DNA from: Candidatus Kaiserbacteria bacterium
GTDB taxonomy: Bacteria > Patescibacteriota > Minisyncoccia > Phycocordibacterales > Phycocordibacteraceae
Length of the DNA stretch: 64,000 nucleotides
Direction of reading: 5' to 3'
Assembly: GCA_016182485.1 (NCBI GenBank)
Contig: JACPGH010000005.1
Coordinates: 305-64,304 of the forward strand
The position numbers were made by a program, and so were the translations under genes. Under the pieces are notes generated by a model. That model saw nothing but the letters and a program-made list of their open reading frames with translations, ran no database searches and was not told the origin of the DNA. Below, in pieces: positions 38,047-45,658 of the stretch (positions are counted from its first letter, which is position 1; each line of letters starts with the position of its first letter).

Positions 38047-38337
38047 CTAGACATTTGCCTTTTCCAGGCGTCGGATGCGGCGCTCGTGATCGAGAATTTT
38101 GACGGAATCCTTATCAACTGCTCGGGCGACACCGTCGAGTGTTTCTTTCATATCCTCAACAGCATCTTCAAGGGCGCCAGTACGCTTTTCTATCGCGGTC
38201 ATGCGGTATTCCAGTCCGTCAAATCGCTCTTCGAATTTATTCTCTATTTTCTCAAAACCAGTTTGGACAGCTCCCAGTACATCGGAAAGCGTTGGTTCAT
38301 ATGTATCTGATTTCTTGGCGCGCTTCATGCGGAACAT
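38047..38337 (-). CDS. Small coiled-coil protein (96 aa) inserted between rplB and rpsS; paralog of 45356..45658
   Basis: Start MFRMKRAKK; upstream part of ORF 38047..38505 overlaps rplB and is spurious; KIENKFEERF...ILDHERRIRRLE. Confidence 0.55.
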   Translation of the reverse strand: MFRMKRAKKSDTYEPTLSDVLGAVQTGFEKIENKFEERFDGLEYRMTAIEKRTGALEDAVEDMKETLDGVARAVDKDSVKILDHERRIRRLEKANV

Positions 38338-38399
38338 TGTAGCACGCGCGCAAAACACAATCGGCCGCCCGCGGGAAGCCGGTTGCGCTGAACTCAATA

Positions 38400-39248
38400 T
38401 TATCCCTTGCGGTTCTTCCCTACCTTCCGGCGGGAAATAATAAACACATTTGAATACTTCTTTGGCGTGCGCGTCTTCTGTCCCTTGCCGGAGGGCTTGC
38501 CCCACTTAGTCTTCGCGCGGCGCGTACCTCGGCCCTGGCGTCCTTCGCCGCCGCCGTGCGGGTGATCCACTGGATTCATCGCGGTACCGCGCACTGTCGG
38601 ACGGATGCCGAGCCAGCGGCTGCGCCCGGCTTTGCCTATGACGACGAGATTCGACTCCTCGTTCCCTACCTGCCCGATGGATGCCCAGCAGAGATCGGAA
38701 ACTTTGCGCACTTCAGTCGAAGGCAGCTTCACCTGGGCATAGCCGGCGTCATGTGCGACGACCTCGGCAAAATTGCCGGCGGAGCGGACGAGTACGCCGC
38801 CCGCCTCAGGCGAAAGCTCTATATTGTAAACGAACGTGCCGACCGGGATGCGGCCGAGCGGAAGCCGGTTACCCGCTTTAAGCGGCGCATCGGCCGAGAC
38901 GATAAGTGTACTGCCTACTTTCACGTCCTTCGGCAGAATGACGTAACGGCGCTCGCCATCTTTGTAGAGAACCCGGCCAATGAACGCCGAGCGGAACGGG
39001 TCGTATTCTACGGTTTCAACTACCGCAGGAATGTCTTTCTTGTTGAAGGAGAAATCAATCGCGCGGAAACGCTGCTTATGCCCGCCGCCCTGATGGCGGG
39101 TCGTGATGCGGCCGAAGGCGTTCCTGCCGCCCTGACTTTTCTTTTTCTTGAGCAATGGCTTATGGGGCGCGTCGCCCGACAAGAGCTCCCGGTACGGGAG
39201 CGTGGTCATGAAGCGGCGGCTCTTGGTGGTGGGACGATAGGATTTCAT
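38400..39248 (-). CDS. rplB: 50S ribosomal protein L2
   Basis: L2 signature incl. GGGHKQ. Confidence 0.95.
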   Translation of the reverse strand: MKSYRPTTKSRRFMTTLPYRELLSGDAPHKPLLKKKKSQGGRNAFGRITTRHQGGGHKQRFRAIDFSFNKKDIPAVVETVEYDPFRSAFIGRVLYKDGERRYVILPKDVKVGSTLIVSADAPLKAGNRLPLGRIPVGTFVYNIELSPEAGGVLVRSAGNFAEVVAHDAGYAQVKLPSTEVRKVSDLCWASIGQVGNEESNLVVIGKAGRSRWLGIRPTVRGTAMNPVDHPHGGGEGRQGRGTRRAKTKWGKPSGKGQKTRTPKKYSNVFIISRRKVGKNRKG

Positions 39249-39284
39249 AAAACTAGTGGCTAGGTGCTAGTAACTGGAGACTAG

Positions 39285-39653
39285 TTAGGCGAATTGAATC
39301 GTGTCGCCGGCGTTCAAATACACGTACGCCTTGCGTCTGGCCGCGCGCGTGCCGAAGCCGCGCTTCGTGCGAAGGGCTTTGCGCTTCGCCGACAGGTTCA
39401 CGACACGGATTTTCCTCGGCACGACGTTGAAGATCTCCTTTACCGCCCCGGCTATCTGGGCTTTAGTCGCCCAGGCGGGAACTGAAAAAGCGTATACGCC
39501 CTTTTCCGTCGCAATGAGCGCCTTCTCCGAGAACCAGGGCGCGCGGATGATCTCATGCGCAATCCCATTTGAAAGCTTCGAGGCCCGCGCATGGCGAACG
39601 ACCGCCTTGCTTTCTTTCTTGTCCTCCTTCTTTTTTGTACCGAAGAGTGCCAT
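39285..39653 (-). CDS. rplW: 50S ribosomal protein L23 with N-terminal extension
   Basis: L23 core. Confidence 0.85.
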   Translation of the reverse strand: MALFGTKKKEDKKESKAVVRHARASKLSNGIAHEIIRAPWFSEKALIATEKGVYAFSVPAWATKAQIAGAVKEIFNVVPRKIRVVNLSAKRKALRTKRGFGTRAARRKAYVYLNAGDTIQFA

Positions 39654-39659
39654 GGTGAT

Positions 39660-40409
39660 TTATTTAGTTTCCGCACGGGAGAGCAGCGCGGCGAACGCCG
39701 CTTCTGGCTTCTCTATGACGACATATTTATGCGAGAGCAGGGCGAGCGGGTTTAGGCTCCGCGCCTCCTCCGTCGCGACGCCGTGAAGATTGCGGAAACT
39801 CTTTATCACGTTCGTATTATAGGCATGCAAAACAATGAGAACCGACTTCGATCCGTTTTCCGAAAGAAGTTTCGCCTTCGCCGATTTTGAAAGAGCGACG
39901 AGAGCGGCAAGCGCCTCCTTCGTCTTGGGCGCGGCAAAAGACAAGCCGTCGACGAGCACGATCTCGCCATCTTTAGCTTTCTTAGAGAGGACGGCCGCGA
40001 GCGCGCCGAATTTCATCTTCTTATTGATCTTCTCGCTGTAATCGCGCTCCTTGCGCGGACCGAACGTGATGCCGCCGTGGCGCCAGATGGGAGAACGCGT
40101 CGAGCTGTGGCGAGCCTGCCCTGTTCCTTTCTGGCGCCATGGCTTTCTGCCGCCTCCGGAAACTTCGGATCGGTCCTTGGTGTGCGCGCGGTTCTGCCGC
40201 GCGTTCGCCTGCATAGCGGTCACGACCTGGTGCACTAGGTCGCTCCGCCACGGGGCGGCGAAAATCTTTTCCGGCAGCGCGATAGTGGAAACCTTGTCGC
40301 CCTTCATCGAATAGACTTGGGCTTCGGCCAGGACCGAGGCTGCGGCCTTCTCTACGCGCGCCTTCGGCGCGCGCGTTCTTTTTTCTTCTGTTTTGATTTT
40401 CGTTTCCAT
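39660..40409 (-). CDS. rplD: 50S ribosomal protein L4
   Basis: L4 signature. Confidence 0.9.
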   Translation of the reverse strand: METKIKTEEKRTRAPKARVEKAAASVLAEAQVYSMKGDKVSTIALPEKIFAAPWRSDLVHQVVTAMQANARQNRAHTKDRSEVSGGGRKPWRQKGTGQARHSSTRSPIWRHGGITFGPRKERDYSEKINKKMKFGALAAVLSKKAKDGEIVLVDGLSFAAPKTKEALAALVALSKSAKAKLLSENGSKSVLIVLHAYNTNVIKSFRNLHGVATEEARSLNPLALLSHKYVVIEKPEAAFAALLSRAETK

Positions 40410-43611: not shown

Positions 43612-43657
43612 GTGGCTGGTTTGCTAGTAACTAGTTTCTAGTCACTAGTTAACTAGT
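43612..43657. repeat. ACTAGT-rich spacer (5x CTAGT within 46 nt) between tuf stop and rpsJ start
   Basis: tggctggtttgctagtaactagtttctagtcactagttaactagtc; TAG in all three frames. Confidence 0.7.
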
Positions 43658-44857
43658 CTACGCTGTTATCTTCGTTACGACGCCTGCTCCGACCGTCTTG
43701 CCGCCCTCGCGGATAGCGAAGTGCTGCTCTCCTTCGAGCGCGACCGGCGCAACGAGCTTTACCTTGAAGGTAACCGTGTCGCCCGGCATGACCATCTCTT
43801 TGCCCTCCGGGAGAGTAACCTCGCCAGTCACGTCCGTCGTGCGGATATAGAACTGCGGCTTGTAGCCGGAGAAGAACGGCGTGTGACGACCTCCCTCGTC
43901 CTTGCCTAGCACGTAGACTTCGGCCTCGAAGTCGGTGTGCGGCGTGACCGAGCCCGTCTTAGCGAGCACCTGCCCGCGATGTACGTCCTCTTTCTTCGTG
44001 CCGCGCAGGAGGATACCGGCGTTATCGCCCGCCTGCCCTTCCTGGAGCTGCTTGTTGAACATCTCGATGCCCGTAACAGTTGTCTTAGCGGTCGGCTTGA
44101 TACCGACGATCTCGATCTCCTCGCCGACCTTGATGATGCCGCGTTCGACGCGGCCGGTCACTACCGTGCCGCGGCCTTCGATCGAGAATATGTCTTCTAT
44201 CGGCATGAGGAACGGCTTGGCCGTCTCGCGCTCGGGCATGTCGAAGTACGTGTCCATAGTGTCGACGAGTTCCTTCATCTTGGCTGCCCACTCGTCATTA
44301 ACGTCCTTCGCTTCGAGCGCCTTCAGGCCTGAACCGCGGATGATCGGCGTGCCCTTGCCGTCGTAGCCCTGCTTGCCGAGAAGCTCACGGATCTCTTCTT
44401 CGACGAGATCAATTAGATCGGCCTCGGCGACCATATCTACCTTATTCAAGAAGACAATGAGCTTCTTCAGGCCCACCTGCTTCGCGAGCAGGATGTGCTC
44501 GCGCGTCTGGGGCATGACCCCGTCAGTCGCGGCGACCACAAGGACGGCGCCATCCATCTGGGCGGCGCCCGTGATCATGTTCTTGATGTAGTCGGCGTGT
44601 CCCGGCGCGTCGATGTGCGCGTAGTGCCGGTTCGGCGTCTCGTACTCCGAGTGATGGAGTGCGATAGTGATGCCGCGCGCCTTTTCTTCAGGAGCGGAGT
44701 CTATCTTGTCGACGCCTTCGACACGGGCGCCATAGCCCTGTCCCGTGAGCATCGAGAGCACATGCAAAATGCCTGCCGTAAGGGTCGTCTTGCCGTGGTC
44801 CACGTGACCGATGGTGCCGACGTTCATGTGCGGCTTGGCCCGGTTAAATTCTGCCAT
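43658..44857 (-). CDS. tuf: Elongation factor Tu
   Basis: [19 protein letters not shown] motifs; full length. Confidence 0.98.
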
Positions 44858-45126
44858 AATCGTTACGTAATTCTCAATTTACAATTTTCAATTTCCAATG
44901 AGTTGCCATCGGATTTATTTGAAAATTGCAAAATTAAAAATTGAAAATTATTAATAAATCCGACTCGGGTCGGAAAACACTCCCGGCCCGTCAGCAGAAC
45001 CAGCGACAAGCCAAAGAGCGACGCCACAATGCGTTATCTAGCAATGTAACCGACCCTTCACAAAAACGCAAGGTTCTGCTAGGGTAGCCATGGGTAAAAT
45101 CTTCTATAACCAGTCAGGAGGACTGC

Positions 45127-45300
45127 TTGAAAACGGCTGACGATTTCCTTCGGGCGATCGAAAACAATCCCGGCGTAGTGGCATCTGCCCTCGATGGATG
45201 GTCTACGGAAGAAGTTGCGGCTGCGGTCCAAGAGCTCGGACAGCGGTTTAGCATCACGGTTCGCCGCATCTGGCCGCCGGCACACGTGAAAATCGACTAG
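45127..45300 (+). CDS. Small ORF (57 aa), TTG start
   Basis: AGGAGG SD 5 nt upstream of TTG; followed by GC hairpin 45309-45329; competes with antisense ORF 45079..45285. Confidence 0.4.
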   Translation: MKTADDFLRAIENNPGVVASALDGWSTEEVAAAVQELGQRFSITVRRIWPPAHVKID

Positions 45301-45355
45301 ACAACGCGGCGGGCCGTACTACGGCCCGCTGCGTATCATTTCCACTTTGGCAAAA

Positions 45356-45658
45356 TCATTCTGTTATTTTCGTACCGGTCGCGGCGGCGAGTTCGTGAAT
45401 CTGCACGTCGTGGCGATGGAGGACAGCAGCACCGAATTTGCTTTCCTGATCGAGATCGGCGACCTTGCCCGTGAAGCCGTCCACGGCATTAAGCGTTTTC
45501 TGTACGAGCTCCTTTACCTCCGAGATGTCTTCCTTCAGCTCATCCCGAATGATATACATCTCCTTCTTGGTGGCGAGATTCGCAAGCGCCCAGTCTTTCG
45601 TGGCGAACTTTTGTTCGAACCTTTGTTCAAGCTTCTCCGCATCTGCGTCGGTAATCAT
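45356..45658 (-). CDS. Small coiled-coil protein (100 aa), paralog of 38047..38337; ATG overlaps TGA of displaced fusA tail fragment
   Basis: EKLEQRFEQKF...VLHRHDVQIHEL aligns with EKIENKFEERF...ILDHERRIRRLE. Confidence 0.5.
   Translation of the reverse strand: MITDADAEKLEQRFEQKFATKDWALANLATKKEMYIIRDELKEDISEVKELVQKTLNAVDGFTGKVADLDQESKFGAAVLHRHDVQIHELAAATGTKITE

Follow-up and report, generated by a model that had tools for sequence, protein, structure and literature searches.

The str-S10 ribosomal gene cluster of a Candidatus Kaiserbacteria strain (contig JACPGH010000005.1) was analyzed within a stretch of 64 kb, referred to here as the window, together with two small coiled-coil proteins that are encoded inside the cluster, cc96 (of a protein family termed A) and cc100 (of a family termed B). 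A gene map was assembled from a six-frame list of open reading frames (ORFs), from Pfam, and from matches to the Pfam-labelled genes of locus L001, where labels L001-L048 denote the loci fetched from relatives. The genes rpsL-rpsG-fusA-tuf-rpsJ-rplC-rplD-rplW-rplB-rpsS-rplV-rpsC were found in canonical order on a single strand. The cluster was not contiguous, however, as four of its junctions were opened by 486 bp to ~1.8 kb, and nine annotated foreign genes and one unannotated small ORF were distributed across these gaps. Five blocks are left as a result, namely rpsL-rpsG, fusA, tuf-rpsJ, rplC-rplD-rplW-rplB, and rpsS onwards. A reading of the sequence alone had proposed that the ribosomal operons are interrupted by non-ribosomal genes, and the ORF map and Pfam bore this out, with the named genes, including the inserts in all four gaps, lying where that reading had put them. 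Exact-sequence look-up showed that all of the inserted proteins are present in the public annotation of Candidatus Kaiserbacteria under HYV30_ locus tags.

Genes and blocks of the cluster, from rpsL onwards (lengths in amino acids, aa):
50743-51150, minus strand: rpsL (Pfam S12/S23)
50250-50714, minus strand: rpsG (Pfam S7)
49887-50231, minus strand: 114-aa hydrophobic protein (mem114), no family, in the rpsG/fusA gap
49229-49816, minus strand: PaaX_M/Cas2-like protein (PF20803, 1e-19), in the rpsG/fusA gap
48538-49131, plus strand: HD_3 hydrolase (7e-32), in the rpsG/fusA gap
46274-48421, minus strand: fusA, for EF-G (Pfam EF-G domains)
45729-46195, minus strand: toxin-antitoxin cassette, a 67-aa gene upstream of an 88-aa toxin
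45992-46195, minus strand: putative antitoxin, 67 aa, overlapping the toxin gene by 4 nt, in the fusA/tuf gap
45729-45995, minus strand: RelE/ParE/HigB-like toxin, 88 aa, above Pfam cut-offs, in the fusA/tuf gap
45356-45658, minus strand: cc100, 100 aa (HYV30_02185), family B, in the fusA/tuf gap
44858-45355: cc100/tuf spacer, 498 bp
45127-45300, plus strand: unannotated 57-aa ORF with a TTG start, in the cc100/tuf spacer, GGAGG 5 nt upstream
43201-44857, minus strand: tuf-rpsJ block, with a 46-nt CTAG-periodic spacer
43658-44857, minus strand: tuf (Pfam EF-Tu domains)
43201-43611, minus strand: rpsJ (Pfam S10)
41743-43029, minus strand: 428-aa hypothetical protein (HYV30_02170), in the rpsJ/rplC gap; the listed ORF is 438 aa, with a TTG start at 43059
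41245-41583, minus strand: hel112, 112-aa helical hypothetical protein (HYV30_02165), no family, in the rpsJ/rplC gap
38400-41075, minus strand: rplC-rplD-rplW-rplB block (Pfam and L001 matches), with spacers of 6, 6, and 36 nt
38047-38328, minus strand: cc96, 93 aa (HYV30_02140), family A, in the rplB/rpsS gap
37572-37913, minus strand: rpsS, for S19 (Pfam Ribosomal_S19, 1.9e-31), opening the downstream ribosomal block

For cc96, cc100, hel112, the 428-aa protein, and mem114, searches of Pfam, NCBIfam, and PADLOC returned no curated family and only sub-threshold coiled-coil matches. The 428-aa protein has one hydrophobic segment, while hel112 was found only in this strain and in near-identical assemblies. 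The 57-aa ORF had no Pfam, PHROG, or PADLOC family, no exact match in the protein collection, and no relative in the fetched loci. The ORF list and Pfam gave no transposase, integrase, or recombinase among the gap genes, and a tRNA and Rfam scan of the window returned one distant tRNA-Ser only, with no known ribosomal-protein leader or RNA family in the gaps.

Two coiled-coil families, A and B

The first small protein had been read as 96 aa from a start at 38337. The ATG of that longer form overlaps the -10-like box described below, so that the ATG at 38328, giving 93 aa, is most likely the start, as in the public annotation. The protein is identical (100%) to an annotated Candidatus Kaiserbacteria hypothetical protein that begins MKRAKK, and its homologues share 45-70% identity. 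When a profile was run against a library clustered at 50%, family A comprised 3021 representative clusters at E<=1e-3, mostly of 80-140 residues. Its members are laid out as a Lys-rich start, EPTLxDV, xxQxGF, a variable count of RFDxVDx heptads, and the C-terminal motif xRxGxLExxVEDxxExLxxxxxAVDKDAxTxxxHExRIxxLEK. AlphaFold2, run on the family alignment, predicted cc96 as one continuous helix over residues 14-92 (pLDDT 92.7), and Foldseek of this model against the PDB gave a best E of 4.7, which is meaningless for a single helix. The isoelectric point (pI) is 5.5 for cc96 and 5.3 as the family A median, and that of the neighboring ribosomal proteins is 10.4-10.9. Giant proteins of 1,000-7,000 residues were matched by the profile of family A as well, with as many as 13 matching stretches in one protein. 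In two near-identical assemblies a 74-aa antisense ORF (window 38086-38310, plus strand; L025:5547-5771 and L026:4903-5127) is annotated in place of cc96, so family-A genes may be under-counted in public annotation. The extra small ORFs that adjoin family-A genes in L031, L036, and L046 belong to neither family.

Family B, for which at least 301 clusters were obtained at E<=1 among 8000 candidates scored, is laid out as MLTxxDKKxLxxxFATKKEL, a variable repeat segment, and LDGFAGKVADLDQENKMGAITLRRHDIQIHELAxATGTTISE. Here the AlphaFold2 model of cc100, again on the family alignment, is an almost continuous helix (residues 4-19 and 21-94, pLDDT 83.5), and the pI is 5.05, with a family median of 5.9. 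Both cc96 and cc100, with a continuous helix of 75-80 residues predicted for each, carry hydrophobic residues in 3-4 spacing, and an isolated amphipathic helix of ~80 residues with such spacing would be expected to form a homo-oligomeric coiled-coil rod. Members of either family were seen to differ by whole numbers of short repeats, for example RFDxVDx, RLDGIDN, and DVAELKT (proteins P0003, P0004, P0010, P0020, P0114, and P0239), and the predicted length of the rod therefore differs between genomes. All named sources of the two families are Patescibacteria (Kaiserbacteria, Nomurabacteria, Parcubacteria group, Minisyncoccota, Paceibacterota, and Saccharibacteria).

The sequence-only reading had the two proteins aligning along their length, as one family that colonized two sites. 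An alignment does exist, but it is weak. BLASTP gave 20.8 bits, with 23% identity over 61 residues and E 0.002 as a single comparison, and the Smith-Waterman score was 58, where shuffled sequences reached 30 +/- 5.8 (p 6e-4, rising to 2.8e-3 when the shuffles preserved heptad phase). In cc96 this alignment ends at residue 83 and in cc100 at residue 68, never reaching the second of the motif pairs that had been quoted in support of it, and its identity is to be set against the 60-68% seen for homologues within each own family.

Between the profiles of the two families the similarity was borderline. Three hhalign runs of A against B gave probabilities of 2.6% (small alignments), <1%, and 24% (largest alignments), with P values of 0.018, 0.07-0.19, and 8e-4, respectively. 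The family-A hidden Markov model (HMM) scored cc100 at E 0.3-4.4 and the family-B HMM scored cc96 at E 0.3-0.7, so that neither protein was recognized by the model of the other family, even though each HMM placed the other protein second among the 909 ORFs of the window. The few better HMM cross-hits were in registers ~11 residues apart, an inconsistency that follows from the periodicity of coiled-coil sequence. In the best profile alignment, A and B have the C-terminal pattern A-[VI]-T-L-x-x-H-[ED]-x-x-I-x-x-L in common, and family B carries an insertion of 6 residues. That both proteins are predicted as one long helix is uninformative, since any coiled coil would qualify. On these sequence comparisons, paralogy of cc96 and cc100 is not established and recent paralogy is excluded; in place of one family at two sites there appear to be two separate large ones, concluded to be at most remotely related, and the C-terminal ~55 residues of both could go back to a remote common ancestor.

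Start signals, hairpins, and gap cargo

A box of the form TGnTAnnnT, ending 6-9 nt before the ATG and without a Shine-Dalgarno sequence, was found at all 11 of the family A and B genes first examined and in the same arrangement at 19 of 21 further family-A genes. Of the 34 genes of families A and B examined in all, only two were without it. The other distinct family-B genes carried a TGnTA(T/C)ACT box 6-8 nt before the ATG in seven cases out of seven examined. Only 56 TGnTAnnnT boxes exist in the window, both strands counted, and no more than 11 of them stand before an ORF of 40 codons or longer; among these ORFs are four inserts (cc96, cc100, the antitoxin, and mem114) and adk.

Boxes of the four inserts:
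38336-38344, minus strand: TGCTACAAT, extended -10-like box of cc96, 7 nt upstream of the ATG
45665-45673, minus strand: TGTTATTAT, extended -10-like box of cc100, 6 nt upstream of the ATG
minus strand: TGGTATACT, box of the 67-aa putative antitoxin, 6 nt before the ATG
minus strand: TGCTACTGT, box of the 114-aa hydrophobic protein, 6 nt before the ATG

A box at this distance with no Shine-Dalgarno sequence makes a leaderless mRNA probable, which suggests that cc96 and cc100 may be autonomous leaderless transcription units. The same box was also observed 5-7 nt before the starts at 7041-8555, 25479-25694, 26458-27849, 29592-30158 (adk), 55996-57027, and 60562-60840, and leaderless-type starts thus seem to be general here, at an estimated one in six genes. 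With promoter-like boxes of their own, the inserts need not be co-transcribed with the translation genes, and the co-expression with translation factors that had been deduced from position is doubtful for both cc96 and cc100.

The ribosomal blocks carry signals of another kind. The rpsL, fusA, rplC, and rpsS blocks each start behind a stem-loop, which is followed by an A/U-rich stretch of 12-15 nt without GGAGG and then by the ATG. A terminator directly after rpsJ, proposed earlier, was confirmed as a strong one.

Hairpins and associated signals (z against shuffles):
51164-51189, minus strand: hairpin and U-rich leader upstream of rpsL (z -2.5)
48437-48459, minus strand: hairpin (AUCCCGAC...GUCGGGAU) and AU-rich leader upstream of fusA (z -2.2)
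43100-43129, minus strand: intrinsic terminator after rpsJ (GCAAAACCGCCCC AUAC GGGGCGGUUUUGC; -30.8 kcal/mol, z -6.9)
41215-41239, minus strand: hairpin after hel112, a strong terminator (z -4.5)
41089-41109: hairpin upstream of rplC (z -3.1)
37991-38019, minus strand: promoter-like TTGACT-17-TACATT upstream of rpsS
37926-37955, minus strand: 13-bp GC-rich hairpin upstream of rpsS, then UUUUGCAUACCC, then the ATG (-35.8 kcal/mol, z -5.3)
45309-45329, minus strand: 9-bp GC hairpin ~27 nt after the cc100 stop codon, no clear U-run (z -4.1)

An equivalent of the rpsS hairpin and U-run is present in L001, L036, L046, L047, and L048, each time preceded by TTGAC-17-TAT(C/G)TT. The stem can be read as a terminator of cc96/rplB, as the 5' leader stem of the rpsS transcript, or as both. 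As the relatives keep a promoter right before it, it probably forms the 5' end of the rpsS transcript and a barrier to read-through.

Several regularities of sequence were noted alongside these signals. The core CGCCUGCCUG(G/C)CGGCAG is common to the rpsL and rpsS stems. In L046 rpsS is preceded by a similar CCUGCCUGCCGGCAGG stem, and CCUGCCUGCCGGCAGGCAGG is found near the rpsJ start in L016. The tetranucleotide CTAG is under-represented in the window (104 observed, ~240 expected). Within the short spacers that separate ribosomal genes it nevertheless recurs at intervals of exactly 7 nt (CTAGnnnCTAGnnnCTAG), which gives TAG stops in all three frames; these runs lie at 32960-32984, 35569-35586, 37233-37257, 39253-39284, 43133-43150, 43624-43656, and 50729-50739, and others at 11003-11020 and 24990-25015. 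The 98%-identical strain L027 has the runs too; relatives at a greater distance lack them and have AT-rich spacers.

The fusA/tuf gap holds the toxin-antitoxin cassette. Two Pfam families matched its toxin above their cut-offs, HigB-like with 29.4 bits (27 required) and ParE_like with 27.1 bits (24.4 required), and a RelE-like PHROG matched it at 1.9e-11, while the 67-aa antitoxin had no recognized family in Pfam or PHROG. The compact cassette, with its overlapping upstream partner gene and a promoter-like box of its own, resembles type II toxin-antitoxin systems of the RelE/ParE/HigB kind; it differs from them in the lack of a known antitoxin family, in its location between fusA and tuf, and in being bracketed by a duplicate of fusA sequence. 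This duplicate is a direct repeat of 51 nt, identical at 50 of 51 positions.

Copies of the direct repeat:
46318-46368: copy 1, inside the 3' coding region of fusA, where it encodes 15 residues
45681-45731: copy 2, an orphan fusA coding fragment that runs from the very stop codon of the toxin gene to 22 nt short of the cc100 ATG

Between them the copies enclose the cassette, the spacer, and the terminal 44 nt of fusA, an arrangement that points to a recent integration or a duplication-deletion event. It is the only long repeat, and none was found to flank cc96 or cc100 in 36000-52000. An empty site was not recovered among the contigs examined, all from 98-100% identical strains, since those with the HD gene break at the fusA start and those with the 428-aa gene stop in tuf; exact-sequence look-up of the fusA protein returned no record. 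Nor was the repeat at the fusA 3' end found as a recurrent integration scar in L016. This locus is from a close relative, whose fusA and tuf are 89% and 92% identical to those of the window, and its fusA/tuf gap (L016:9542-10457) holds a HicB/HicA-type cassette and a 104-aa membrane protein, not a member of either small family, instead. The repeat and the different cassette in L016 together mark the fusA/tuf gap as a variable hot spot. The rpsG/fusA junction of L016 is uninterrupted, and the three-gene insert of the window (48538-50231) is absent there. In other Kaiserbacteria, homologues of the PaaX_M/Cas2-like protein (49-55% identity) were seen to adjoin ribosomal blocks at L036:7987-8235, L048:6-365, and L035:4809-5057.

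The two small families differ in where their genes lie. A family-A gene is present between rplB and rpsS, and co-oriented with them, in seven distinct lineages (the window, L001, L031, L035/36, L046, L045/47, and L048), in which rplB is 78-88% identical to that of the window and the small protein only 31-64%. In three of these lineages the gap was observed to hold a further gene beside the family-A gene, for a DUF3298 protein on the opposite strand (L001:4169-4939), a GIY-YIG protein (L031:1874-2128), or a wHTH-Fic/DOC protein (L048:4473-5528). A second recurrent family-A slot lies after a gene for a TPR protein of ~795 aa and before MurJ and LepA (L003, L010, L011, L014, and L037-L042), and other family-A genes were found between ftsW and murG (L002) and after GroEL (L034). 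A short neighbor-joining tree of family A did not cleanly split the members of the S10 slot from those of the TPR slot, and it placed L046-48 in a divergent subgroup. The surroundings of family-B genes vary. In L004-6 the gene follows an MNT/HepT toxin-antitoxin pair; in L007 it comes after rplJ-rplL, with two more genes in between; in L009 it adjoins a bAvd gene and is divergent from hisS-mreB-mreC; and in L018/19 its neighbors are an aminoacyl-tRNA synthetase gene on one side and mraZ on the other. In L016 the family-B gene is directly upstream of rpsL, against fusA/tuf in the window, and the two proteins are only 36% identical. Only in L007 and L016 was a Y1_Tnp-like gene seen close to family B, in L016 as its direct neighbor. 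In one Kaiserbacteria clade, then, the slot of family A at rplB/rpsS is heritable, and family B, which has no fixed slot, tends to occupy variable spots beside toxin-antitoxin cassettes.

A probable split super-operon and its residents

One interpretation of these data, to which we give somewhat better than even chances, is that the cluster consists of split, separately signalled ribosomal blocks with cargo in the gaps, and that cc96 and cc100 come from two families, are promoted on their own, and are not copies of one gene. The str-S10 super-operon of this lineage would have been divided into five re-initiated blocks, and where downstream ribosomal genes can be re-initiated the gaps could tolerate foreign genes. 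The gaps would then be filled with different cargo in different lineages, with family A at rplB/rpsS as one old resident amid a turnover of other small self-promoted genes, each forming its own transcription unit with a leaderless mRNA. All genes of the canonical str and S10 operons are present, in their order and orientation; the cluster differs from the canonical arrangement in the four opened junctions with their nine foreign genes, in the hairpin leaders of four of the five blocks, and in a break at rplB/rpsS that is conserved in a clade. Literature searches for interruption of the S10 operon or for leaderless expression in the Candidate Phyla Radiation (CPR) returned nothing relevant.

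The proteins cc96 and cc100 are probably oligomeric coiled-coil scaffold proteins, and neither ribosomal proteins nor mobile elements. Our best guess is an abundant structural or adaptor role, possibly at the cell envelope or the division apparatus, rather than that of a ribosome component. ZapB and Braun's lipoprotein Lpp are small bacterial coiled-coil proteins of a single helix, and the two proteins share with them a length of ~60-100 residues, one helix, heptad-type spacing, and, as a prediction, homo-oligomeric rods. One family-B member carries the source label 'Lpp', and some members adjoin division or cell-wall genes. Unlike ZapB and Lpp, however, cc96 and cc100 have no Pfam or NCBIfam match, no lipobox, and no signal peptide, and only families A and B have the C-terminal His motif and the EPTL motif at the N terminus.

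Structural databases offered one further likeness. Profile positions 9-80 of family A matched PDB 7o97, a 93-residue hypothetical protein of the CPR bacterium Candidatus Giovannonibacteria, at E 4e-5, family B only weakly (E 0.09). The match excludes the conserved C-terminal motif, though, and unrelated coiled coils outscored it (reovirus sigma-1, a spike HR1 mimic, designed helical proteins, and a trypanosome receptor). The PDB sequence and profile searches otherwise returned generic coiled coils, such as reovirus sigma-1, haemagglutinin HA2, tropomyosin, and designed proteins, and no paper describing 7o97 was found in the literature.

Several points weigh against the interpretation of split blocks with independent residents. 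The promoters, leaderless starts, and block boundaries are predictions from sequence. The rpsL, fusA, and rplC hairpins beat shuffles only moderately (z -2.2 to -3.1), a hairpin at tuf was no better than shuffles (z -0.2), and the -10 element before rpsS in the window is poorer than those of the relatives. The largest of the profile comparisons (P 8e-4) leaves room for remote homology between A and B. Finally, the envelope or structural role rests on loose neighbors (ftsW/murG, MurJ, mraZ, and mreB), and small genomes are so dense in housekeeping operons that such neighbors could be due to chance.

Among the alternatives, the one that fares best, although unlikely, is that cc96 and cc100 are paralogues, a single family that colonized the ribosomal cluster twice and, being selfish or hitch-hiking, exploits the high expression there. 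The pairwise score that beats shuffles, the best profile P value with its common C-terminal pattern, the likeness of the two proteins in architecture and promoter type, and the adjacency of family B to toxin-antitoxin cassettes in the window and in L004-6 would all fit such a history. It is opposed by the low hhalign probabilities, the poor cross-family HMM scores and their shifting registers, and the low identity noted above; moreover, there are no terminal repeats, target duplications, or recombinase beside either small gene, neither family was found in viral contigs, and the family-A slot has been inherited over seven diverged lineages and is not scattered. A selfish element, also suggested in the sequence-only reading, does fit the toxin-antitoxin cassette with its 51-nt repeat, but not cc96 or cc100.

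It could be, though with slightly smaller chances again, that the family-A protein is a lineage-specific, translation-linked factor, associated with the ribosome or its assembly, whose gene is kept in the S10 operon for co-regulation. The position of the gene had been taken to imply possible ribosome association, and the co-oriented rplB/rpsS slot, held in at least seven lineages despite the divergence of the protein, remains a point in favor of a link to translation, as do a Lys-rich N terminus (MKKxKKSK) in most family-A members and the location of the other recurrent slot two genes upstream of LepA. However, the proteins are acidic (pI 5.5 and 5.1 for cc96 and cc100, against >10 for ribosomal proteins) and do not have the basic, RNA-binding composition expected of a ribosomal protein. 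The family-A gene has its own promoter-like box, with a hairpin and U-run between cc96 and rpsS, and the gap at rplB/rpsS also gathers unrelated GIY-YIG, Fic/DOC, and DUF3298 genes. Against the seven lineages with a place in the ribosomal protein operon stand ~10 other loci with close homologues after the TPR protein and others at ftsW/murG or GroEL, closely similar members (60-68% identity) among them.

A bolder form of this idea, and something of a long shot, would make family A a Patescibacteria-specific translation-linked factor that became fixed at rplB/rpsS in Kaiserbacteria, with a leaderless mRNA made in step with the ribosomal proteins. The protein would then act as a coiled-coil adaptor in ribosome assembly, tethering, or hibernation, and family B would be a remote sister sharing the C-terminal His motif.

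It is improbable that prophage or defence-island traffic left the small proteins behind, as remnants or relatives of coiled-coil proteins of phages (XhlA-like or of PHROG families). PHROG 5553, 12015, 5225, 1009, and 5328, which are of ~90-115 residues and rich in coiled coil, were matched by 17-38 of 83 family-A members, with best E values of 1e-6 to 4e-11 (phrog_5553 by 38 members, best 2e-9; phrog_12015 by 33, best 4e-11). Single members matched PHROGs annotated as hemolysin or hol-like, and the nearby cargo is of a mobile type (toxin-antitoxin, Fic/DOC, and GIY-YIG). The best match of cc96 itself, to phrog_5553, is confined to the repetitive coiled coil at its center (residues 24-71), however, and since the function of these PHROGs is unknown a match to them explains nothing. 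XhlA-type proteins have a C-terminal membrane segment, and no such transmembrane or hydrophobic segment is present here (GRAVY -0.83). Scans of 2.9 million viral contigs with the motifs of either family found no relative, PADLOC gave no match except one weak coiled-coil hit, and the vicinity contains no phage genes. Chance open frames in long spacers, to which the shortness of the ORFs and the choice of the 74-aa antisense ORF by the gene callers on L025 and L026 might point, are effectively refuted by the conservation data, as hundreds to thousands of homologues with intact frames, conserved motifs, and 30-70% identity, conserved start-proximal promoter boxes, and confident structure predictions mark the small ORFs as real, conserved genes.

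Ribosomal protein operons are among the most stable of gene arrangements and form the backbone of CPR phylogenomics and genome binning. In one CPR lineage, the split-block interpretation would place a heritable break at rplB/rpsS, held by a conserved and self-promoted small gene, beside junctions that serve as landing sites for cargo such as toxin-antitoxin, Fic, and GIY-YIG genes, and so give a concrete picture of operon erosion in reduced genomes. The antisense ORF called in two assemblies is a warning that automatic gene calling goes wrong at these loci. The apparently universal leaderless-type promoter amounts to a testable statement on expression in organisms with almost no transcript data, and the two very large uncharacterized families of Patescibacteria, of thousands and hundreds of clusters, are candidates for study.

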